Made by a program: the position numbers and the translations under genes. The notes beneath the pieces were generated by a model that ran no database searches, had not been told where the DNA came from, and worked only from the letters and a program-made list of their open reading frames with translations. From contig JAKSVI010000001.1 in assembly GCA_024408095.1 (NCBI GenBank), forward strand, positions 33,814 through 97,813: a stretch of DNA of 64,000 bases, read 5' to 3'. Of the stretch, positions 3,422-60,967 are shown piece after piece. This DNA is from Bacilli bacterium (GTDB lineage: Bacteria > Bacillota_I > Bacilli_A > RFN20 > CAG-826). Within the stretch, counting starts at the first letter, position 1. Every line of letters starts with the position of its first letter.

Positions 3422-4723
3422 ATGAGAATGGTTGACCTAATTTGCAAAAAACGTGATGGACATGAATTAACAGATGAGGAAATTCGTTTTTGGATTTCAG
3501 AATATGTTAAGGATAGTGTTCCTGATTATCAATCTTCGGCTATGAATATGGCTATTTTATTTCGTGGTATGAACAAACGCGAAATAGCAACACTAACAGA
3601 TGCTATGGAACACAGTGGAACTGTTATTGATTTAAGTGCCATAGAAGGAATAAAAGTTGATAAGCATTCTACTGGAGGAGTTGGAGATAAAACAACATTA
3701 GTTTTAGCACCAATGGTTGCTGCGGTTGGAGCAAAAGTAGCTAAAATGAGCGGGCGTGGTTTAGGCCACACAGGCGGAACACTTGACAAACTTGAATCAA
3801 TTCCTGGCCTTTCAATTTCAAAATCTGAGCAGGAGATGATTAATCAAGTCAATAAAATTGGACTTGCTGTAATTGGACAAACTAGATCATTGGTCCCAGC
3901 TGATAAAAAATTATACGCATTAAGAGATGTTACCGGAACTGTGGAATCAATTCCATTAATCGCATCGAGTGTTATGAGTAAAAAATTAGCTTCAGGAACT
4001 GACGCTATTCTCCTTGATGTGACAGTTGGCAATGGGGCTTTCATGAAAAATTTGGAAACCGCAAGAGAATTATCAAAAACAATGGTTGAGATTGGAAAAT
4101 CTCTTAATAGAGATACAAAAGCCATAATTTCTGATATGAATGAACCATTAGGATTAGCAGTTGGAAATTCATTAGAAGTTAAAGAAGCTATTATGTCTTT
4201 ACACGGCAATGGACCAGATGATTTAATGGAACTTTGCTATTCAGCTGGTTCTATAATGCTTACCCAAGCAAAACTATGTAAAAATAGGGATGAAGCAAGA
4301 AAAAAACTTGAAGAAGTAATCAAGAATGGCGAAGCATTCAATAAATTTTTACTAATGGTTAAGGAACAAGGTGGAGATATTTCATATATCGAACATCCTG
4401 AAAAATTTGAAATAAGCAAAAATATTATCGAGATTAAATCTAAACAAAGTGGTTATGTTAAGAAGTGTGAAGCCTTAGATATTGGTGTTTCTGCTATGAA
4501 ACTTGGCGCCGGAAGAGAAACCATTGAAGACATAATTGATATGTCGGCAGGAATTATCTTAAATAAAAAAGTTGGATCTTATGTTAATATTGGCGATACC
4601 TTATGCACTGTTTATACAAATAAAGATAATGTTGATGACGTGCTAAAGGATATTGAAAACGCATACGAAATTACTAAAGAAAAAATCGAACCTATTAAAG
4701 TTATCAAAGAAGTTATTGAATAA
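3422..4723 (+). CDS. pdp: Pyrimidine-nucleoside phosphorylase
   Basis: 433 aa. Glycosyl transferase family 3 / thymidine phosphorylase motifs (STGGVGDKTTLVLAPMVAA). Typical N-terminus MRMVDLIxKKRDG. Confidence 0.85.
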   Translation: MRMVDLICKKRDGHELTDEEIRFWISEYVKDSVPDYQSSAMNMAILFRGMNKREIATLTDAMEHSGTVIDLSAIEGIKVDKHSTGGVGDKTTLVLAPMVAAVGAKVAKMSGRGLGHTGGTLDKLESIPGLSISKSEQEMINQVNKIGLAVIGQTRSLVPADKKLYALRDVTGTVESIPLIASSVMSKKLASGTDAILLDVTVGNGAFMKNLETARELSKTMVEIGKSLNRDTKAIISDMNEPLGLAVGNSLEVKEAIMSLHGNGPDDLMELCYSAGSIMLTQAKLCKNRDEARKKLEEVIKNGEAFNKFLLMVKEQGGDISYIEHPEKFEISKNIIEIKSKQSGYVKKCEALDIGVSAMKLGAGRETIEDIIDMSAGIILNKKVGSYVNIGDTLCTVYTNKDNVDDVLKDIENAYEITKEKIEPIKVIKEVIE

Positions 4724-8689: not shown

Positions 8690-8913
8690 TCGTTATTATA
8701 AGAATAATAGAGGGAACTAATTCCACAATGTCATTATAGAGAATCCGAGATGGTGGAAGTCGGATATGACTAATGGAAATGCCACTCCCTGACATACGGG
8801 TAATGCCGTCGAATTGTTAACGTAATTAACTTAATTAAGTGCTTAGCTCAATATAAGGGATAAGAAATAGGATGGTAACACGGCAATTGTCGTTCCTATA
8901 AGGAACTTTTTCT
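8690..8913 (+). promoter_or_regulatory. T-box riboswitch leader of alaS (tRNA-Ala sensing), including the terminator/antiterminator
   Basis: Conserved T-box sequence AAATAGGATGGTAACACGG at about 8862-8883. It is followed by a terminator hairpin GTTCC-TATA-GGAAC plus TTTTT (8891-8913). The upstream Stem-I-like region has AGAGA and a probable specifier GCC followed by A (GAAATGCCAC). It lies directly 5' of alaS. Confidence 0.75.
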
Positions 8914-13982: not shown

Positions 13983-14031
13983 AAATTAATAAAAATTGAA
14001 AAAACTTCCGAACTACTTATATAGGAGGTTT
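13983..14031 (+). promoter_or_regulatory. Copy 1 of a conserved 49-nt leader element (promoter-like TTGAAA-N16-TATATA plus inverted repeat AACTTCC-N14-GGAGGTT covering the SD), 8 nt upstream of comEA
   Basis: AAATTAATAAAAATTGAAAAAACTTCCGAACTACTTATATAGGAGGTTT. It is at least 96% identical to copies at 33331-33379 and 57371-57419 (minus strand). Confidence 0.7.
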
Positions 14032-14039
14032 TTTTATTT

Positions 14040-14576
14040 ATGTTCAAAATAATTATCGGTGTAATTATTGCGGGAATACTTGCAATTGGCGCATTCATGA
14101 TATTAGATCCAAATATCAAAATAGCAAACAGCACGCAAGATCCAACAGTTGACACCACAAACACATTCCAAGTTTCTATTGAAGGAGAAATTTTTAAAAG
14201 TGGAACGTACACGCTACAAGAGGGCGCGACAATGAATGATTTAATTACGGCGGCTGGCGGATTAACAAATAACGCTGATGAATATGCATTCTTTGAAGAT
14301 GCTGTTTTAACAAAAGGCCAGAGCTATTATATAGCTCCAAAATTTGATGTAGGAGATATATGCAACCAAAACGAAATTAAGAAGGTGAACATTAATAGTG
14401 ATGAAAGCGAAACATTACTGTCAGTTAACGGTTTTACAACCTCAATTGTATCTTCAATCATTTCATATCGAACAGAAAATGGTGCCTTTTCAACAATTGA
14501 AGCATTGATGGATGTTTATGGAATTGGCAATGCCACGTATCGTAAAGTACGAAACTATGTAATATTGCATAAGTGA
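14040..14576 (+). CDS. comEA: Competence protein ComEA (DNA receptor: TM anchor, SLBB domain and tandem helix-hairpin-helix)
   Basis: 178 aa. N-terminal TM, SLBB-like region (GTYTLQEGATMNDLITAAGG) and C-terminal HhH (FSTIEALMDVYGIGNATYRKV). Confidence 0.8.
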   Translation: MFKIIIGVIIAGILAIGAFMILDPNIKIANSTQDPTVDTTNTFQVSIEGEIFKSGTYTLQEGATMNDLITAAGGLTNNADEYAFFEDAVLTKGQSYYIAPKFDVGDICNQNEIKKVNINSDESETLLSVNGFTTSIVSSIISYRTENGAFSTIEALMDVYGIGNATYRKVRNYVILHK

Positions 14577-16582
14577 AGCTACTATTTCTCTTTCTTTCTA
14601 TATTTTTAGGCTTTTCTTTATTTTCATCGCCAATTGGATTTGGAATAACATTCGTAATTTTAATAATCTGTTCAATTAAAAGATTTAAGGCAAAATTTAC
14701 TATTCTTTGTTTGCTTTTATTCACAGTTTTTACATTATTATCGCTTATTAAACTAAATGTTATTAGGGATTGTTACCAAGGAGTTGTAATCGAGGCGAAA
14801 GAAAATTATGCAATTTTACTATGCAGATTTGAAAGAATATATCTACCTATTAAAGAAAATAATATAGAAATAGGTGATATCATTAACGTAACTGGGACAA
14901 AAAGTGATTTAAATTTTATCACGATTCAATCACAATTTGATTTCTCACATTATTTAAATAACAAAGGTATATTTAATCAATTAAATGTTGATACCATCAA
15001 TACAATATTTAAAAATCCAATACGTCTTAAACAGATAAGAATGGATTTTTTAAATCACTTTGACGAAAATACAAAATCATTAATCGGGAGCATATTGTTT
15101 TCTGAAGGGGAAACTGGTGAAGCAACCGAATTGATGAGTCAGTTGCATCTATCAAGATTAGCAACTGTATCTGGCGTTTATATCTATGCTTTTCTTAAAA
15201 TGCTAAATGGTCTTTATTCTCGTAAATTTAGCGAGAAAAACTCTAAAATTTTAGCATTAATTACCTTATCGCCATATTTAATTTTTACATTCAATAAGTT
15301 ATCGATTAAAAGAATTGTTTTTCTATATATATTCAGATTAATAAATGAGTATAAGTTCAATAAAAAGATAGACAATTTATCCATAATTTCCATAATCGCT
15401 ATTATATTTCTATTATTAGATCCATATTTATCTAGGCAGGATTCATTCATATTAGGATTTTTTATACCGATTGTATCCCATTTTATTAATCAGGCCTTTC
15501 GAAAGAAGAAAAAAACTAAAAAATATATATTATCATCATTATTAATTTATGTTTTTTATATTCCGTTTGAAATTAAATTTTTTAACGAAATTTCACCTTT
15601 ATCAATTGTTTTTCAAACAATATATTCGCCGATATTTATTTTATTAGCTTTGTTCTCGCTTTTATGTTTTATTAAAATTCCTTTGTATCCAGTTGTTAAC
15701 ACACTAGCTAAAGGTTGCACCAACTTACTTGGATGGTGCAACAAAATTAATCCAAAACTGTTTATACCGCCATTCCCAGATTGGCTAACTCTGATTTATT
15801 ATTTATTATTCGCCCTTTGTTTGGTCTTAATAACTATTAAATTATTACCTATTTCAAGATTTATTTTTGTTATATCAATATGCTTGTCGATTATTTATGT
15901 TCTCCCAATACAAAATTTTGTTACCGCTGAAGTAGATTTTATTAATGTTGGTCAGGGTGATTCGTGTTTAATTAGATATAAAACAACAACCATTTTAATA
16001 GATACTGGTGGCTCCTTATACCTAGATGTTGCAAAAGATTCTTTAATTCCTTATTTAAAAAGTAAAAGAATCTACAACATAGATTGCGTTATTACGACCC
16101 ATGATGATAACGACCATAAAGGAGCATTAGAAAGTCTTTGCAGCAATTTTAATGTAAAAGAATATATAAATGATATCGGCAATTTTCCATTGTCTTTTAA
16201 TAATTTAACCTTAATAAACTACAATAATTTTGTTTCTGAATGGAAAGAAGAAAATGACACAAGTTTGGTGATTGGATTTGCTTTGTGTGATACAAATTTT
16301 TTAATCATGGGTGATGCACCTAAAAAAATAGAAAATCTAATTATGAAAGAGTTTGACTATATACCTTGTGACGTTTTAAAAATAGGACATCATGGTTCAA
16401 ATACATCTACAAGCGATAAATTCATTAAGTATTTGAAGCCTCAAGATGCAGTCATATCGGTTGGCAAAAATAAATACGGTCATCCAGATAGTTCAGTAAT
16501 AGGTATTTTAAAAAATAATAATGTAACAATTAAAAGAACAGATAAAATTGGCACAATTATATATTCATATTATTGCTTTTAA
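14573..16582 (+). CDS. comEC: DNA internalisation competence protein ComEC/Rec2
   Basis: 669 aa polytopic membrane protein with a C-terminal metallo-beta-lactamase domain (INVGQGDSCLI, HDDNDH, GHHGSNTSTS). It overlaps the comEA stop by 4 nt. Confidence 0.85.
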   Translation: MKLLFLFLSIFLGFSLFSSPIGFGITFVILIICSIKRFKAKFTILCLLLFTVFTLLSLIKLNVIRDCYQGVVIEAKENYAILLCRFERIYLPIKENNIEIGDIINVTGTKSDLNFITIQSQFDFSHYLNNKGIFNQLNVDTINTIFKNPIRLKQIRMDFLNHFDENTKSLIGSILFSEGETGEATELMSQLHLSRLATVSGVYIYAFLKMLNGLYSRKFSEKNSKILALITLSPYLIFTFNKLSIKRIVFLYIFRLINEYKFNKKIDNLSIISIIAIIFLLLDPYLSRQDSFILGFFIPIVSHFINQAFRKKKKTKKYILSSLLIYVFYIPFEIKFFNEISPLSIVFQTIYSPIFILLALFSLLCFIKIPLYPVVNTLAKGCTNLLGWCNKINPKLFIPPFPDWLTLIYYLLFALCLVLITIKLLPISRFIFVISICLSIIYVLPIQNFVTAEVDFINVGQGDSCLIRYKTTTILIDTGGSLYLDVAKDSLIPYLKSKRIYNIDCVITTHDDNDHKGALESLCSNFNVKEYINDIGNFPLSFNNLTLINYNNFVSEWKEENDTSLVIGFALCDTNFLIMGDAPKKIENLIMKEFDYIPCDVLKIGHHGSNTSTSDKFIKYLKPQDAVISVGKNKYGHPDSSVIGILKNNNVTIKRTDKIGTIIYSYYCF

Positions 16583-16651: not shown

Positions 16652-17623
16652 ATGATTTATTTAATTTTTGGAACAGAAATTTCTATTATAAAAAATAGAA
16701 TAAATAAAATTGCAAAAGAAGCATTATCTGAAATCGATGAAATGAATTTTGTTCGTTTTGATGGCAATAATATTTTAATACAAGATGTCATCGATGAATG
16801 TAATTATATTTCTTTGGGATATGACCATAAAGTTGTTTCATTTGAAAATTGCTATTTTTTGCTAAAACCAAAACCACGAAATAGTATTGAATCAGATCAA
16901 GATTACAAAGCCTTAACAACATATCTTAATAACCCTAATGAACAAACAGATCTTATTCTTTCAGTTAATGAAAATAATATTGATGAGAAATCAACAATAG
17001 TTTCCATTTTAAAAGAAAAAGGAAAAGTTATGCAGGTTGCTGAACCTGATGAAAAGAATTGGCTTGATTATGTTAAAAGTTATATAAAAGACAAGCTTCA
17101 AGTTCAAATTGATAATGACGCGATGCTTGAATTAGCGGATAGAACACAAGGTGACATCGCTTTGTTTAAAAATAACGCTATAAAATTATCTTTATACACA
17201 AATCATATAACTTACGACGATATAAATTTAATGGTTCCAAGAGTTTTGGAAGATAACGCTTTTCAAATATTTAACTATCTTTTGATGAAAAAAAATATAG
17301 ATGCTGTTGCTTTATTTAACGATTTAAAAGTGTCATCTGTTGAACCTGTTACATTAATTTCTATGTTGAGCAATCAATTTAGATTACTTAGTCAAGTTTC
17401 ATATTTGGTCAAAAATGGCGATAGTGATGATGAAGGTGCAAAAAAAATCGGAATAAAACCTATAAGATTTAAAATATTACGCAAAAATTCATATACTTTT
17501 TCAGAAAGTTCTATTTTGAAAGTATTAGATGATTTGTATAATCTCGATTTACAAATAAAAAGCGGACAAGTTGACCGCTTTTATGCATTTGAATTATTTT
17601 TAATAAAATTCAAGGTTGATTAA
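16652..17623 (+). CDS. holA: DNA polymerase III delta subunit
   Basis: 323 aa. N-terminal MIYLIFGTE typical of HolA. In the conserved comEC-holA-rpsT synteny. Confidence 0.7.
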   Translation: MIYLIFGTEISIIKNRINKIAKEALSEIDEMNFVRFDGNNILIQDVIDECNYISLGYDHKVVSFENCYFLLKPKPRNSIESDQDYKALTTYLNNPNEQTDLILSVNENNIDEKSTIVSILKEKGKVMQVAEPDEKNWLDYVKSYIKDKLQVQIDNDAMLELADRTQGDIALFKNNAIKLSLYTNHITYDDINLMVPRVLEDNAFQIFNYLLMKKNIDAVALFNDLKVSSVEPVTLISMLSNQFRLLSQVSYLVKNGDSDDEGAKKIGIKPIRFKILRKNSYTFSESSILKVLDDLYNLDLQIKSGQVDRFYAFELFLIKFKVD

Positions 17624-20507: not shown

Positions 20508-21458
20508 ATGTATAATATTTGCATGATTATGAAGAAACCGAAAATTGTTTTTATGGGAACACCAGAAATATCAGCCTTTGTTTTAGAGAGCTTGATACAA
20601 AACGGATATAACGTTGTTGCAGTTATAGCTCAACCAGATAGGCCTGTTGGGAGAAAGCAAATTTTAGAGGCTGTTCCTACAAAAGTTGTCGCTAATAAAT
20701 ATGGAATACGATGTTTTCAACCAATAAAAATAAGAAATGACTATAGTTTCTTGCTTGAAATAAAGCCAGATTTAATTATTACATTAGCTTATGGGCAAAT
20801 AGTTCCGCAGTCAGTTCTTAATATTCCAAAATTTGGTTGCGTAAATTTACATGGCTCTATATTACCAAAATATCGAGGAGCCGCTCCTATACAATATGCA
20901 TTGTTGAATGGAGATAAGGAAACTGGAATGTCATTAATGAAAATGACAGCAGCAATGGATGCTGGCGATGTTTACGCTGTTAAACAAATTAAAATAGATG
21001 ATGATGATAATTGCACAACCTTATTCAATAAAATGGCAGTAGTTGCTAGAGATTTAATATTAGAATCGTTGCCTAAATTATTTACAAAAGAGTTAATTGC
21101 TATGCCGCAAGATGAAAACTTTGTTACTTTTTCTCCATCCATCAAGCCAGAGGAAGAAAAAATTGATTTGTCATCCAGCTGTAGCCAAATAATAAACAAA
21201 ATTCGCGCTTTAAGTTATCAACCTGGCGCTTATTTATTACTTAACGACGAAAAATTAAAAATTTATAAAGCCAAATTAATCGATCGATCCTCAGGCGAAA
21301 CTGGAAAAATTATTAAGGCAGATAAAAACGGTTTATATCTCCAATGTCAAGATGGCGTTATTTCTTTATTAGAAGTCCAACGTCAGGGCAAGAAAAGAAT
21401 GAAATATAATGATTTTGTAAATGGAAATAGCAATATTTTAGGACAAAAACTTATATAA
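20508..21458 (+). CDS. fmt: Methionyl-tRNA formyltransferase
   Basis: 316 aa. IVFMGTPE N-terminus, formyltransferase SLLP motif, C-terminal Fmt domain. The true start is probably at 20526 (MKKPK). Confidence 0.9.
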   Translation: MYNICMIMKKPKIVFMGTPEISAFVLESLIQNGYNVVAVIAQPDRPVGRKQILEAVPTKVVANKYGIRCFQPIKIRNDYSFLLEIKPDLIITLAYGQIVPQSVLNIPKFGCVNLHGSILPKYRGAAPIQYALLNGDKETGMSLMKMTAAMDAGDVYAVKQIKIDDDDNCTTLFNKMAVVARDLILESLPKLFTKELIAMPQDENFVTFSPSIKPEEEKIDLSSSCSQIINKIRALSYQPGAYLLLNDEKLKIYKAKLIDRSSGETGKIIKADKNGLYLQCQDGVISLLEVQRQGKKRMKYNDFVNGNSNILGQKLI

Positions 21459-32154: not shown

Positions 32155-33297
32155 ATGGCAGAAAAGAAAGATTATTATGAATCTCTAGGTGTAAGCAAAA
32201 ACGCTAGCAAAGACGAAATCAAAAGTGCCTATCGAAAATTAGCAAAAAAATACCATCCAGACAACAAAGAAACTGGTAGTGAAGCCAAATTCAAAGAGGT
32301 TCAAGAGGCATATGATGTTCTTTATGATGACCAAAAACGAAGCGCGTATGACCAATTTGGGCATGCTGCTTTTAGCCAAACGGGTGGTGGTCCAGGAGGT
32401 GGAAATCCATTTAATGGTGCTGATTTCTCCAATTTCCAAGGATTTGGTGACATGGGTGGATTTGGTGACATTTTCTCCTCATTTTTTGGAGGCGGATCCC
32501 GTTCTAATAGAAACACCGGCCCAACACAAGGTGAAGACATGGTCATGCGTGTCAAAATTGACTTTATGGATGCTGTTTTGGGAAGAGATATTGAAATATC
32601 TATTAATCACGATGAAGAGTGCCCAAATTGTCACGGAACCGGTGCAAAAACACCAAACGATATAAGAACATGTCCTACTTGCGGTGGAACTGGTTCAGTT
32701 CGTATGCAAAGAAGAACAATGTTCGGAGTTATGGAAAATCAAGAAGTTTGTCCTAACTGCCACGGTAGTGGAAAAGTTATTTCTGATTATTGTCCAAAAT
32801 GTGGTGGAAAAGGCTATGTTAGAGTTAAAAAACAACTCAAAATTCATATTCCAGTTGGCATCAATGAAGGTCAGCAGATTCGCGTTGCAGGAATGGGCGA
32901 AATCGGGCAAAGGGGTGGCCCACATGGCGATTTATATGTCGAAGTCACCATCAAACCACATCAATATTTCAAACGCGAAAGAAATGATATTCATATAAAT
33001 GTTCCAATTGATTTTACTGACGCTATTTTAGGAACTAATCTTGATATTCCTACTGTAAACGGCGATGTTTCTTTAACAATTCCACCTGGTACTCAAGTTA
33101 ATCAAATTTTAAGAATGAGAGGTCAAGGAATAAAGGATTTAAGAAACGGAAAGCCAGGCGATCAATATGTCCATCTTGATATCAAAATGCCTTCTAATTT
33201 AAATAAAGAGCAGAGAGCAATTTTAGAGAATTATCGAAACACTTATACCAAAAAAGACTCATGGTTCTCAAAATTCAAAAAAAATTTCACAAATTAA
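32155..33297 (+). CDS. dnaJ: Chaperone DnaJ (Hsp40)
   Basis: 380 aa. J-domain HPD (KYHPDNK), G/F-rich region, four CxxCxGxG zinc-finger repeats. Confidence 0.95.
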
Positions 33298-33318
33298 GAC
33301 CCTTTGGGTCTTTTTTTA
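33298..33318 (+). terminator. Rho-independent terminator after dnaJ
   Basis: AGACCC-TTT-GGGTCT followed by TTTTTTT. Confidence 0.7.
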
Positions 33319-33330
33319 TTCTCAAAAAAT

Positions 33331-33379
33331 AAATTAATAAAAATTGAAAAAACCTCCGAACAACTTATATAGGAGGTTT
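33331..33379 (+). promoter_or_regulatory. Copy 2 of the conserved 49-nt leader element, 4 nt upstream of the ATG of the C39-like membrane protein
   Basis: AAATTAATAAAAATTGAAAAAACCTCCGAACAACTTATATAGGAGGTTT. It has 2 mismatches against copy 1. The inverted repeat AACCTCC/GGAGGTT is perfect here. Confidence 0.7.
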
Positions 33380-56798: not shown

Positions 56799-57367
56799 TT
56801 AGCCATTATTATTCACAATCATTGCAAAATAAGCATTAATTAATAGGTTGACTTTAACCTCATTTAACATTGTAACATATCCATATTCTTCATCATCTTC
56901 TTCGGATAAATGTAGATTTTTGTCCCCAATAGCTTGACGTTTGTAAATTCGTAATTTATCAATTGCGCGTATTTGGTTAACAACAGCCAATGTTGAAGAT
57001 GTTGTGCCTAATCCAGGTATTATGCCTAAATCAAGATCACTTCTTGGATGTGCTCCGTTGTGATTTGTTTTTAAAGACAAACAATAACAAGCGGATTAAA
57101 TTCATTTGAATCCATAAGTACAACGCCATAATGCCTATTTGAAAATTCAGCATTAACATTTAATCCCCAATCAATTTCATAAATTTCACCGCGTTTAAGA
57201 TTGTATCTTAACTTATATTGCTCTGAGAAAGTTATATATTCCATCTGCCTTTTCATCCAATCAAGTTGATCTCTCATTCCTCCATAACGACCACCTTCAG
57301 ATGTAGGAAACCTGTCCTTTTTTATAACGCCAAACTTTTCATTGGAGCTAACTTCTAACTCATTCAT
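56799..57367 (-). pseudogene. MazF/PemK/EndoA-family endoribonuclease toxin gene interrupted by a frameshift at about 57071-57080, with an unusual roughly 55-aa N-terminal extension
   Basis: Two overlapping minus-strand ORFs (57071-57367 and 56799-57080) together align to B. subtilis EndoA/NdoA and Kid: RGEIYEIDWG...GVVLMDSNEFNPLVIVC | LSLKTNHNGAHPRSDLDLG...AVVNQIRAIDKLRIYKRQAIGDKNLHLSEEDDEEY. The break falls in the run CTTTAAAAAC. No antitoxin gene is adjacent. Confidence 0.6.
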
Positions 57368-57370
57368 AAA

Positions 57371-57419
57371 AAACCTCCTATATAAGTAGTTCGGAAGTTT
57401 TCTCGATTTTTATTAATTT
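57371..57419 (-). promoter_or_regulatory. Copy 3 of the conserved 49-nt leader element (minus strand), ending 3 nt upstream of the mazF-like ATG
   Basis: The minus strand reads AAATTAATAAAAATCGAGAAAACTTCCGAACTACTTATATAGGAGGTTT. It is identical to copy 1 except that TTGAAA becomes TCGAGA. Confidence 0.7.
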
Positions 57420-57434
57420 TTTTGAAAATTTTTT

Positions 57435-58019
57435 CTAAATTTTAATTAAAGCTTTGCTTTCTTTTTTTATTTTTTTCTCATAAATCAATGAAGATATCAT
57501 TCTAGAGGTCGCTTCTCTTGTTAAAAATAACTTATTTGCAAGTTCAGTTATACTTTTGTAATGAATGATTCCACCATTAATTTGAAAATAATAATCTAAA
57601 CGCTCAGTTGCCTTTGAAAAATTAAGAATTTTTATCTGCGAATTTAAAGTTTTACAAAATTCTGATTGCATATTGAGATAGCGTGATAGAAATTCTGTGT
57701 TATCTTTAAGTATGGAAACAAAATTATCCTTGGAAAAAAAGATTACTTTTGATTGTTCGACTGAAACAACATCGCCTTTATATGCAGAATCGCTCGAAAA
57801 AATCAAATTATTGCCAAACATCATACCAGGTTTAATAATATTAAAAACTACTTCCTTGCCACTATCTAAATATGAAACAATCTTTAGCTTACCTTGAAGC
57901 AAAACACCTATGTTACTACAAATTTCATCTTCTGAGAAAATTGTCGAGCCCTTTAAAAAGCTTTTAATATAACCTGTGCTAAATTCGTCTTTAGTTAATA
58001 CATCTAAAATATTTGTCAT
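57435..58019 (-). CDS. Crp/Fnr-family transcriptional regulator (cNMP-binding domain plus C-terminal HTH)
   Basis: The cyclic-nucleotide-binding-like beta-roll (GVLLQGKLKIVSYLDSGKEVVFNIIKPGMMFG) and C-terminal HTH (ITELANKLFLTREATSRMIS). The ORF-track start at 58145 would overlap the divergent lipoprotein gene by 68 nt, so the internal Met at 58019 is preferred. Confidence 0.7.
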   Translation of the reverse strand: MTNILDVLTKDEFSTGYIKSFLKGSTIFSEDEICSNIGVLLQGKLKIVSYLDSGKEVVFNIIKPGMMFGNNLIFSSDSAYKGDVVSVEQSKVIFFSKDNFVSILKDNTEFLSRYLNMQSEFCKTLNSQIKILNFSKATERLDYYFQINGGIIHYKSITELANKLFLTREATSRMISSLIYEKKIKKESKALIKI

Positions 58020-58021
58020 AT

Positions 58022-58037
58022 CGTGATTATAATCACA
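58022..58037. promoter_or_regulatory. CRP-like palindromic operator GTGA-N6-TCAC in the divergent intergenic region between the Crp/Fnr gene and the lipoprotein/permease genes
   Basis: cGTGATTATAATCACa is a perfect 4-6-4 palindrome matching the CRP half-site core TGTGA-N6-TCACA. It overlaps a TATAAT-like hexamer. Confidence 0.5.
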
Positions 58038-58077
58038 TATTTGTATATAAAAGTCCACTATTATATTAAGGAGAATT

Positions 58078-58998
58078 ATGAAGAATTTACTATTACTACC
58101 ATTACTAAGCATATCATTAACATCCTGCGGAAATTGGATATCCAAAGGATTAACAATTATTTCACCAACCGGAGCACCAGCAATTGCATTTTATAACCAT
58201 TATGCCAACAGCGCTTTTGAAACAAATAGCATCCCAGGCAATATAGTTGCGATGATGGTTGGCAAAAATGCAAAAGATATAGTTGTAATTGATATTACAA
58301 GTGGAATATCTGCTATTAATCAAGGAGTCAATTACAAATTGGCTGCATGTTTAACATTTGGCAATTTCTATCTATGTGGCACAGGAAATGATGAAAATAA
58401 GCAATTAAATCCAGGAGATAAAATTATATTGTTTAAACGACATGGACTCCCAGATATTGTATTTCATTACTTGTATGGCAACGAATATGATTCACAAATA
58501 CAATATGTCGATAGCGCAGCAACAGCGAGTACCTGCCTTGCAAAAGGAAAAGATTTGAATAATAATCCAATTGACTATGTTTTCCTAGCGGAACCTGCGG
58601 TTACGACGGTTTTAAACAACAAACAAGCACCAACTTATGGAAAATCATATGTTTATAGAAGTATTCAAGAAGATTTTAAAGAAAAATCTGGTAAAGATAT
58701 GATTCAAGCTTCTATTTTCATTAATAACAATGTTACAAAATCTGATGCTGTTTCATTTCTGAATGGTCTTCAAAAAGATATAGCAGAAGGAATTTTAAAC
58801 CCTTCTGTTGTAAAAGAATGTATAGAAAAAGATGCTAATAATCGATATGGAATGACACCTGATCAAGCATATAATTGTTTGTTAACAAATACTATTGGCT
58901 TAGGTTTTAAAGATGCATACGAAATGAAAGATGACATAGATAACTTTGTTACTCTTTTTGGATTGGAAAAGACACATGAAGAAATTTATTTCAAATAA
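58078..58998 (+). CDS. Lipoprotein, probable ABC-transporter substrate-binding component
   Basis: 306 aa. Lipobox LTSCG after an N-terminal signal peptide (MKNLLLLPLLSISLTS-C). Cotranscribed with a downstream TauT/NitT-type permease. Confidence 0.55.
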   Translation: MKNLLLLPLLSISLTSCGNWISKGLTIISPTGAPAIAFYNHYANSAFETNSIPGNIVAMMVGKNAKDIVVIDITSGISAINQGVNYKLAACLTFGNFYLCGTGNDENKQLNPGDKIILFKRHGLPDIVFHYLYGNEYDSQIQYVDSAATASTCLAKGKDLNNNPIDYVFLAEPAVTTVLNNKQAPTYGKSYVYRSIQEDFKEKSGKDMIQASIFINNNVTKSDAVSFLNGLQKDIAEGILNPSVVKECIEKDANNRYGMTPDQAYNCLLTNTIGLGFKDAYEMKDDIDNFVTLFGLEKTHEEIYFK

Positions 58999-59755
58999 AT
59001 ATTTTTTAACCCTCATTGGTATTATTTTGTTCCTTGGATTATGGGCTCTTATTGCAGCCATTATTCATGAACCAATTTTAATATTTCCAGGGCCAATAGA
59101 TACAATAAAATATTCATTTAAATTATTAGGACAACCAGAAACATATCTACATATCGGCTATTCAGTTTTGAGACTTCTAATTGGATTTCTCATTAGTGCA
59201 GTTTTAGCGTTGATTTTAGGTCTAATTGTAGGTAATTTTAAAAAATCAGGTTATGTATTTAAGCCCACAATTATAGCTCTTAAAACAATTCCGACAGCGG
59301 CTTTAGTTTTATTGCTTCTCAGTGCTGTTGGCGCATCTAACACTCCTATTTATGTGGTTGCAGTTATATGCTTTCCAATTCTATTTGAAGCTGTAGCAGG
59401 AGGAATAGGAAATATTGACCCACAAATCCTTTTTGCGCTTAAAGTAGATGGACAAAATTTTTTCATTGAAAATATAAAAGTAAAAATACCATTAGCAGCA
59501 CCATATATAGTTGTAGGAATGGCATCAAGTTTTGCATTATCTTTTAAAATAGAAATTATGTCTGAAGTCATCGCTGGATCAACTGGCTATGGACTTGGAT
59601 CGGCTATTTCAAAAGCATCAACGGGAAGTGACATGCTAAATAAAGTTCCCTTATTTTCATATGCTTTTATTGCAATCCTACTAGCGTTATTAACATCATT
59701 TCTTTCGTTTGGAATTAAAAAAATTTTTGCATATAAGAAAAAGAGAGCTAGTTAA
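58946..59755 (+). CDS. ABC transporter permease (binding-protein-dependent inner-membrane component, NitT/TauT-like)
   Basis: 269 aa, 6 TM helices. EAA-type loop FEAVAGGIGNIDPQILFALKVDGQNFFIENIKVKIPLAAP. The likely true start is the internal Met at about 58976. No ATPase gene is adjacent. Confidence 0.7.
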   Translation: MLLFLDWKRHMKKFISNKYFLTLIGIILFLGLWALIAAIIHEPILIFPGPIDTIKYSFKLLGQPETYLHIGYSVLRLLIGFLISAVLALILGLIVGNFKKSGYVFKPTIIALKTIPTAALVLLLLSAVGASNTPIYVVAVICFPILFEAVAGGIGNIDPQILFALKVDGQNFFIENIKVKIPLAAPYIVVGMASSFALSFKIEIMSEVIAGSTGYGLGSAISKASTGSDMLNKVPLFSYAFIAILLALLTSFLSFGIKKIFAYKKKRAS

Positions 59756-59764
59756 TTAGCCTCT

Positions 59765-60967
59765 TTAATCTTCAAATATTTCGTTAATAGCATTGCCAAG
59801 TAAGTTACTAGGTTTATTTAGTTTGAAATTCTTAAGAATTGTTGCACCGATATCGCCAAATGTCATTCTTTCTTCAATATAGCGACCATTTTTAATTTTA
59901 GGAGAATAAATTAATAAAGGTATTTTTTCTCGAGTATGATCAGTTCCTGTCCAAGTTGGATCATTACCATGATCGGCAGTAATTACAACTAAATCGTCTT
60001 CTTTCATTGATTTCATGAACTCACCAAGGCGTTTATCAAACCTTTCTAAACATTCGCCATACCCAACTGCATTTCTTCTATGCCCATATTCACTATCAAA
60101 CTCAACGAGATTAACAAAACAAATGCCTGTAAAATCATGGTTGTGTAATTCATCTATAGTTTTATCCATTCCGTCTTCATTAGATACTGTTTTTTGTGTT
60201 TTAGTTACACCATATCCGTCAAATATGTCGCTAATTTTTCCAACACAAGAAACCATAAAATCATTGTCTTGTAAAATATTCATACATGTTGGAACTGATG
60301 GTCTCAATGCAATATCATGTCTGTTTGATGTTCTTTTGAACGTTTCAGAAGAATTTCCTAAATATGGCCTTGCAATGATTCTTCCTACCATCCATTCAGG
60401 TTTCATGCAAATTTCTCTAGCTATTTCACAGCATCTATATAATTCATTAAGGCCTGTAACCTCTTCGTGTGCCGCAATTTGTAACACGCTATCAGCAGAA
60501 GTATAAACGATGAGAGAATTTTCTCGCATTTGTTGTTCACCTAGAACTTTTAATATTTCAGTACCGCTGGCTGCACAATTACCAATAACCTTATGCCCAG
60601 TTTTATCTTCTAGTTCTTTAATTAATTCAGGAGGAAAACCATTTTCTGTAAAGGTTAAGAATGGTTTAGTTGTATGAACGCCCATCATTTCCCAGTGGCC
60701 TGTCATTGTATCTTTTCCGTTGCTCATTTCATTGCTTCTAGCACAATAAGAATGAGGGTGTGATACCTTTTTACAACCATTTATATCATCAAGATCCGCA
60801 ATTCCTAAGGAATTTAGATTTGGGATGTTTAATCCATTTGGCATTTTTTCAGAGATATGCTTAAAAGTATTGGCTCCAAAGTCGCCAAATTTCTCGGCAT
60901 CTTTTTGATAACCGACTCCAGCTGAGTCCATTACTATAATAAATATTCTTTTAAATTTATAATCCAT
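59765..60967 (-). CDS. deoB: Phosphopentomutase
   Basis: 400 aa. N-terminal IFIIVMDSAGVG and metal-binding residues of the alkaline-phosphatase-like core. Confidence 0.9.
   Translation of the reverse strand: MDYKFKRIFIIVMDSAGVGYQKDAEKFGDFGANTFKHISEKMPNGLNIPNLNSLGIADLDDINGCKKVSHPHSYCARSNEMSNGKDTMTGHWEMMGVHTTKPFLTFTENGFPPELIKELEDKTGHKVIGNCAASGTEILKVLGEQQMRENSLIVYTSADSVLQIAAHEEVTGLNELYRCCEIAREICMKPEWMVGRIIARPYLGNSSETFKRTSNRHDIALRPSVPTCMNILQDNDFMVSCVGKISDIFDGYGVTKTQKTVSNEDGMDKTIDELHNHDFTGICFVNLVEFDSEYGHRRNAVGYGECLERFDKRLGEFMKSMKEDDLVVITADHGNDPTWTGTDHTREKIPLLIYSPKIKNGRYIEERMTFGDIGATILKNFKLNKPSNLLGNAINEIFED

Follow-up and report, generated by a model that had tools for sequence, protein, structure and literature searches.

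The 49-nt sequence that stands before three genes of the window, by which I mean the whole 64-kb stretch of DNA analysed here, is probably (I put this at roughly 0.6) a compact 5' leader with an RNA stem-loop that occludes the ribosome-binding site (RBS), and the three genes behind it would be translated poorly unless that helix is opened. The genes encode ComEA, followed by ComEC; a membrane protein with a C39 peptidase domain; and a MazF-like protein. The repeat itself is real and non-random. A degenerate pattern allowing up to 3 mismatches finds three copies in the 64-kb window, at 13983-14031 (+), 33331-33379 (+) and 57371-57419 (-), with 0, 0 and 2 mismatches to the degenerate consensus, and finds nothing in 100 shuffled sequences. 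No further degenerate copy turned up in the window, even with as many as 16 of the 49 positions allowed to mismatch. The copies differ from one another at 2, 2 and 4 positions (92-96% identity over 49 nt), and pattern search and pairwise comparison thus agree on the three copies and the 2-4 differences reported in the first-pass annotation of this DNA. Four positions vary overall. Copy 3 departs twice from the TTGAAA word; the 5' arm of the predicted stem has a C/U difference, opposite a G, and the loop has an A/U difference.

Beyond the 49-mer, identity continues for about 3-4 more A-rich bases on the 5' side, and the flanks are otherwise unrelated, in a window of 31.5% GC. All three copies lie in register before an ATG, at the short distance already noticed in the annotation; a dispersed intergenic repeat of the REP/MITE kind would be expected in many copies placed without regard to gene starts, and the count of three covers the 64 kb of the window. 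Copy 1, between the greA stop (13961) and the comEA ATG (14040), ends 8 nt before the start codon; copy 2, just 3' of the dnaJ terminator, ends 4 nt before the C39 gene; and copy 3 ends 3 nt before the mazF-like gene. Copy 2 is unchanged in a 99%-identical strain (L012). An independent Logan assembly of the same organism (contig L004, SRR17543907) has its position 1 inside the element, starting with TCCGAACTACTTATATAGGAGG, as is expected of an assembler that breaks at a repeat longer than its k-mer. Scans with CCGAACNNNTTATATAGGAGG returned three matches in a genome collection, one in a metagenome collection and none in a viral collection, the source assembly standing outside these collections; two of the matches (L002 and L005) lie in GC-rich surroundings, with no similarity to the element around the match. 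Rfam gave no match at the gathering threshold over the whole window, and in permissive mode only chance-level ones (E > 0.3) at copies 1 and 2. Elsewhere in the window, a T-box leader upstream of alaS (8695-8900, +) scores 73 bits (E 3e-16), under its Rfam gathering score of 93, and is therefore not reported at the default threshold.

The predicted stem-loop of copy 1 spans 13997-14036 (+), with a 5' arm at 13997-14009 (UGAAAAAACUUCC), a 14-nt loop at 14010-14023 and a 3' arm at 14024-14036, in which the Shine-Dalgarno (SD) sequence GGAGG occupies 14024-14028 and is followed by a U-run. Its minimum free energy (MFE) is -13.4 kcal/mol (z -3.8), and none of 200 shuffles is equally stable. In copy 2 (33350-33379, +) the arms at 33350-33357 (AAACCUCC) and 33372-33379 (GGAGGUUU) enclose a loop at 33358-33371, with the SD at 33372-33376 (MFE -11.0 kcal/mol, z -3.7). 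In copy 3 (57403-57368, -) the 5' arm lies at 57403-57393, the loop at 57392-57379 and the 3' arm at 57378-57368, with the SD at 57378-57374 (MFE -11.2 kcal/mol, z -3.4). The leader thus folds into a stable stem in all three copies (z -3.4 to -3.8; 0-1 of 200 shuffles fold as well as the window copies), and GGAGG is wholly paired in both the MFE and the centroid structure of each. An inverted repeat whose right arm is the SD had been described before, and this stands; its length of 7-8 bp does not, as the predicted stem has 8-13 bp with A-run/U-run extensions and one G.U. The stems in the window are nevertheless modest: five of the pairs contain G or C, the others are A-U, and the loop, at 14 nt, is large. 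No alternative pairing was found inside the leader, and the exact 10-mers in the window that might serve as a complementary 'anti-anti-SD' were only AT-rich chance words. An upstream open reading frame (TTG at 13996, 18 codons) was considered and rejected: copy 3 has TCG at that place, and no SD precedes the frame.

Behind copy 1, comEA (14040-14576, +) encodes HHH_3 and SLBB domains and is overlapped by comEC (14573-16582, +; Competence and Lactamase_B domains), after which comes holA (16652-17623, +). Behind copy 2, the C39 gene (33384-34577, +) encodes 397 residues with an N-terminal Peptidase_C39 domain in which the Cys and His motifs are present. The C-terminal two-thirds of the protein are hydrophobic, and as a whole it looks like a bacteriocin PCAT exporter cut down to its N-terminal half, without the ATPase. 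Next come ybeY, cdd, era and recO, at spacings of 0-33 nt. Such ATPase-less proteins, with C39 and membrane domains, make up a conserved family, about 397 aa long and 30-35% identical (L013, L015, L021), and its place in the clade is fixed between dnaJ (or deoB) and ybeY. Two relatives have, after ybeY, a gene whose called product of 599-609 aa unites FtsK/SpoIIIE translocase domains with a cytidine deaminase domain (L013 11692-13521, L014 2743-4542); this product, which adjoins the C39 gene, is either a fusion or a miscall.

The third gene, mazF/PemK-like, occupies 56799-57367 (-) and would encode about 190 aa if intact, with an N-terminal extension of about 55 aa. The annotation had named all three downstream genes correctly, except that the mazF-like gene is not a single intact ORF: a 1-nt deletion near 57077-57080 splits it into ORFs at 57367-57071 and 57080-56799, and PF02452 is matched (2e-7) only after frame repair. 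The closest intact homologue reads ...VCPLKTNHNG..., and therefore the base missing from the window belongs to the Pro codon near 57077-57080. Both the NCBI MAG and a Logan assembly have an entry for the shortened product of 98 aa. Intact homologues number more than 140, measure 180-200 aa, share 50-68% identity and are better conserved than ComEC; a homologue aligns to S. aureus MazF structures. Across the clade the gene is syntenic and monocistronic, convergent with nadD-yqeK, yhbY, yqeH, yqeG, parC and parE. It shares the PemK/MazF fold with type II MazEF systems, but their adjacent, co-transcribed antitoxin gene was not found: no small ORF lies up- or downstream in the window, L017 or L019. 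Its synteny across the clade and the lack of a neighbouring antitoxin gene set it apart from typical mobile toxins. Directly upstream of copy 3 lies a Crp/Fnr-like ORF with a cNMP-binding domain (57435-58145, -), which is absent at this position in relatives and whose link to the element is positional only. Together with divergent ABC-transporter genes it fills 57435-59755, between deoB (59765-60967) and the mazF-like gene. In L017 and L019 deoB directly precedes mazF, and therefore a lineage-specific insertion or rearrangement has taken place beside copy 3.

The leaders of the same genes were compared in eight other genomes. Their ComEC proteins are 44-49% identical to that of the window and 42-74% identical among themselves, and these are therefore separate genera; gene order is conserved nonetheless, and the synteny greA-comEA-comEC-holA-rpsT is kept. 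An anti-SD/SD stem-loop is present in 9 of 10 orthologous leaders of comEA, the C39 gene and the mazF-like gene, and the tenth has only a weak one. In five relatives (L006, L007, L009, L010, L011) the comEA leader runs from an A-run through the anti-SD arm, an AU-rich loop, the SD arm and a U-run to the ATG. The anti-SD arms of these five are ACCUCCUA, ACCCCCUA, AAAAGCCUC, GCCCCCUC and CCCCCCUAU, with cores ACCUCC, ACCCCC, GCCUC or CCCCCC facing GGAGG(U/C/G), and the SD arms are UAGGAGGU, GGAGGC and GGAGGG; the loops, of about 5-15 nt, are AU-rich and share no conserved sequence. The C39 leader of L013 reads AAAACUUCCUA-UUUCCAAG-UAGGAGGUUUU (an N8 loop) and lies 3' of a separate dnaJ terminator. 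In L021 it reads CCCCCUA...UAGGGGG, the SD itself being GGGGG facing CCCCC, changed to match its arm. Of the mazF-like leaders, that of L017 has UUCUUCC-N14-GGAGGAA, 3' of a separate terminator, and that of L019 has AAAAUCCCCCUA-N9-UAGGAGGAUUUU.

Among 12 distinct lineage leaders, 10 have a predicted MFE of -9 to -19 kcal/mol and z of -2.5 to -6, and the weak hairpins are those of L017 (z -0.7) and L015 (z +0.7). The C39 gene of L015 has a different leader of about 300 nt (3774-4079; also in L016), richer in G+C and with apparent structure, in which the hairpin is weak. It matches nothing in Rfam, at gathering or in permissive mode; the gene may here carry another regulatory RNA, unrelated to the hairpin. 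Judged from the sequences, the leaders of these three gene families keep one design from genus to genus. One cis-regulatory principle for the three genes had been proposed from the window, and the presence of the hairpin on the same three families in other genomes bears this out. An RBS-sequestering hairpin in the 5' UTR, one of the two readings offered at that time, is likewise favoured by orthologous leaders in other genera, which combine compensatory changes with variable loops.

Nine leaders, three of which are near-identical rows, were aligned (alignment A2). Here 87% of cells are paired versus 81% in shuffles, these controls being inflated by a structure derived from the same sequences that it is tested on. 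Both sides change in 4 of 13 pairs, and the covariation score of 0.233 (0.123 when shuffled) is reached by none of 500 shuffles. Every measure drops when the 3' partners are slid, and RNAalifold returns the same helix from A2. The pair just 3' of GGAGG is A-U, G-C, C-G, U-A or G.U, depending on the lineage. The pairing is also specific to the target genes, which come out at the top of the ranking for SD pairing among 203 SD-bearing candidate starts at 11 loci. Over a fixed span of -16 to -5 the pairing scores are 0.83 for comEA, 0.76 for C39 and 0.73 for mazF, against 0.15-0.62 for 18 neighbouring control families. Furthermore, a covariance model built from nine leaders recovers the comEA leaders withheld from it, with 37 bits for L010 and 21 bits for L009, and its other matches in 273 kb are only two terminators between convergent genes. 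A fourth family, a conserved gene of unknown function after lepA, was considered and dropped; it has an SD hairpin in L011 only and lacks one in seven other lineages. The L011 hairpin (21100-21147) has 9 bp and contains the SD (UCCUUGUUU/AAACGAGGA).

A helix of this kind could also be a palindrome in DNA. An RNA is preferred over a protein-bound DNA palindrome because the loops vary, because G.U pairs occur in the sense strand and because the U/C difference keeps its pair with G. The preference has its counterweight, in that the compensatory changes also keep a DNA palindrome and the recurrent C.A mismatch, which faces the A of GGAGG in four lineages, weakens the RNA-strand argument; G.U pairs, which can form in the sense RNA alone, exceed C.A cells by a ratio of no more than about 2:1. 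The other reading in the annotation was a shared sigma-A promoter, TTGAAA-N16-TATATA, with an operator, AACYTCC-N14-GGAGGTT, bound by a dimer such as the Crp/Fnr-like protein. This I consider unlikely, and it fared poorly in the comparison, although it has points in its favour: in copies 1 and 2 an AT-rich hexamer lies 16 nt from TTGAAA, a good -35-like word; some promoter for C39-ybeY-era must lie within about 65 nt after the dnaJ terminator; the Crp/Fnr-like gene adjoins copy 3; and the identity of the copies takes in the loop and also the 22 nt that precede the stem, which a hairpin alone would not demand. However, TATATA has A at position 6 where a T is near-invariant, the -35 of copy 3 is TCGAGA, and a promoter scan calls nothing at any copy. 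TATATA also abuts GGAGG, and a start 6-8 nt downstream would give a leader of about 3-10 nt and an mRNA without an SD; promoter and SD are therefore unable to serve the same transcript. Neither hexamer is kept at a suitable spacing in nine related leaders (L006-L021), and a -10 element in their loops was rejected, an A2 + T6 hexamer being present in only 3 of 9. As for the operator, arms whose distance varies from about 5 to 15 nt are ill-suited to a DNA-binding dimer, the palindrome is broken in DNA wherever the RNA has G.U, and the repeat reads unlike Crp/Fnr half-sites.

A second promoter reading invokes an alternative sigma factor of the ComX/SigH type. The cin-box consensus is TACGAATA, and the box stands about 10 nt upstream of the start sites of late com genes. 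The loop word TTCCGAACTA would then be a cin-box-like -10, transcription would start in TATATA, 3' of the anti-SD arm, and the SD would be free in the new mRNA but still locked in read-through transcripts. Such an arrangement would account neatly for lock and release alike, the loop word agrees with the consensus at 6 of 8 positions and has its CGAA core, and CCGAAC is intergenic in the window only within the three elements. I nevertheless find this reading very unlikely: the loops of relatives have no CGAA, CGA words occur at inconsistent places 5' of the stem in L007, L009, L011 and L021, and no exact cin-box (no CGAATA) lies near any of the three genes. The absence of a ComX cin-box had been pointed out before and is confirmed, the best candidate being the 6/8 loop word, which relatives lack. 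More generally, the element resembles cin-box, ComK-box and CRP-S promoters in its place upstream of comEA-type late competence genes, but the conserved feature here is the helix and not a DNA box; ComK boxes, being pairs of A/T-runs, are not judgeable at 31% GC.

The resemblance to Rho-independent terminators, in particular bidirectional ones, is closer. They too have an A-run, a G/C-containing stem and a U-run, and the leader model weakly matches true terminators. The hairpins could thus be plain intrinsic terminators or insulators of the upstream gene (greA or the crp-like gene), in which the SD serves as the G-rich arm by chance in an AT-rich genome, with neither a switch nor co-regulation. 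The layout fits, a U-run follows all six comEA hairpins, greA has no other terminator, and the off-target matches of the covariance model are terminators between convergent genes only. The comEA hairpins of relatives fit a Rho-independent terminator as well, for example that of L006, with an 8-bp stem, an 8-nt loop and CUUUUUU. However, a canonical dnaJ terminator (33296-33319, +; AAGACCC-TTT-GGGTCTT plus a T-run) lies immediately upstream of copy 2, and separate canonical terminators likewise lie just upstream of the leaders in L013, L021 and L017, where a second one would be superfluous. The C39 versions have merely UUU or UUUU and then A-runs. In the window the 14-nt loops are beyond terminator criteria, which ask for a loop of 3-8 nt, and a terminator scan calls none of the three copies. 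Finally, a terminator at this place leaves no space for a promoter and an SD, and the gene would be expressed only by read-through, with the hairpin in its 5' UTR anyway; a further difference from terminators is that the next gene has its SD in the 3' arm. I therefore regard this account as rather unlikely. A terminator or insulator role is plausible at greA-comEA and is not the general role of the hairpins, because four leaders follow separate canonical terminators and the C39 versions lack a U-run.

The near-identity of the three copies is a matter apart from their fold. In two related genomes with two leaders each, the leaders of different genes are 57% and 67% alike, compared with 65 +/- 8% between genomes, and concerted evolution of leaders within one genome was not seen in these two. 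The 92-96% identity in the window, loop and 5' flank included, is therefore lineage-specific and by itself no proof of a shared sequence-specific factor; it may come from recent copying or from a lineage-specific factor that reads the sequence. That the repeat is recently copied sequence without a function of its own, spread by gene conversion or rearrangement and replacing older leaders, strikes me as highly improbable. Only this lineage shows the near-identity, and the DNA before mazF is rearranged relative to L017 and L019, but all three copies stand in the same register before an ATG, and the leaders that they would have replaced have the same structural design in relatives. The sole stem difference among the copies is the C/U facing G, at which pairing is retained, and copying is in any case no argument against function.

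On the preferred reading, that of an RNA helix over the RBS, the anti-SD arm (A-run and CYUCC) would pair with the SD arm (GGAGG and U-run) of the gene that begins 3-8 nt further on. Transcripts with both arms could arise by read-through from greA or the crp-like gene, or could start in the AT-rich 5' part of the leader, and on any transcript containing both arms the RBS would be occluded. ComEA (with ComEC), the C39 membrane peptidase and the long MazF RNase would then be translated at a low level until the helix opens. Where a U-run follows the stem, as at comEA in six lineages and at mazF here, the hairpin may also terminate or insulate upstream transcription. Transcription probably passes through the C39 leader routinely, with control acting on translation of the first gene, because ybeY, era and recO come so closely behind that no promoter would fit, 3' of the dnaJ terminator. 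Candidate openers are a protein, an sRNA or a processing event; there may also be none, and the hairpin would then be a constitutive damper. Transcription of the leader, repression of translation and joint release of the three genes are all steps that I infer. A competence regulon spanning the three genes would be plausible. That the same lock on each RBS is opened jointly by one trans-acting factor, such that a clade of uncultured Bacilli with small genomes would control a competence-like set (ComEA/ComEC, C39 and MazF) at translation initiation and not via ComK/ComX/Sxy-type factors, is a tentative extension, and one that I am inclined to doubt; such an opener, protein or sRNA, would perhaps be sequence-specific in this genome, given the 49-nt identity.

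Comparable locks are familiar elsewhere. In the tfoX mRNA of V. cholerae, controlled by the sRNA TfoR, and in the E. coli rpoS leader, controlled by DsrA, an upstream anti-SD pairs with the RBS and blocks initiation, and tfoX/TfoR links SD-sequestering control to natural competence. Those leaders are longer, target a regulator and are opened by an sRNA, whereas here the design sits on three structural genes and no partner was found in the window. In the type I toxin mRNAs hok, tisB, zorO and aapA1, too, the toxin ORF is kept inert by an intramolecular anti-SD/SD helix. These toxins are small membrane peptides, activated by 5' or 3' processing and with an antisense RNA partner; in contrast, the product here is a 190-aa protein of the MazF family, and the same lock stands on non-toxin genes too. 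For control of a comE operon after transcription initiation I know of no precedent other than ComN. According to the citation of Ogura & Tanaka (2009) in PMC4949633, ComN exerts such control on the comE operon of B. subtilis, and the likeness is that of a Firmicute comEA-comEC operon controlled post transcription initiation. The literature search found no paper on an SD-sequestering hairpin at comEA, and none that connects RF39-type Bacilli to competence.

If the hairpins are only constitutive dampers or insulators, they would amount to a tidy gene architecture of a compact genome and to little more. An RBS lock on comEA-comEC across genera would be a concrete and testable handle on how, if at all, DNA uptake is regulated in the uncultured gut Bacilli to which this MAG is related, a small RNA element suited to reporters, pull-downs and probing. 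Furthermore, the presence of the same lock on the other two genes suggests that an ATPase-less C39 peptidase-permease and an antitoxin-less MazF of 190 aa may work together with the DNA-uptake proteins.
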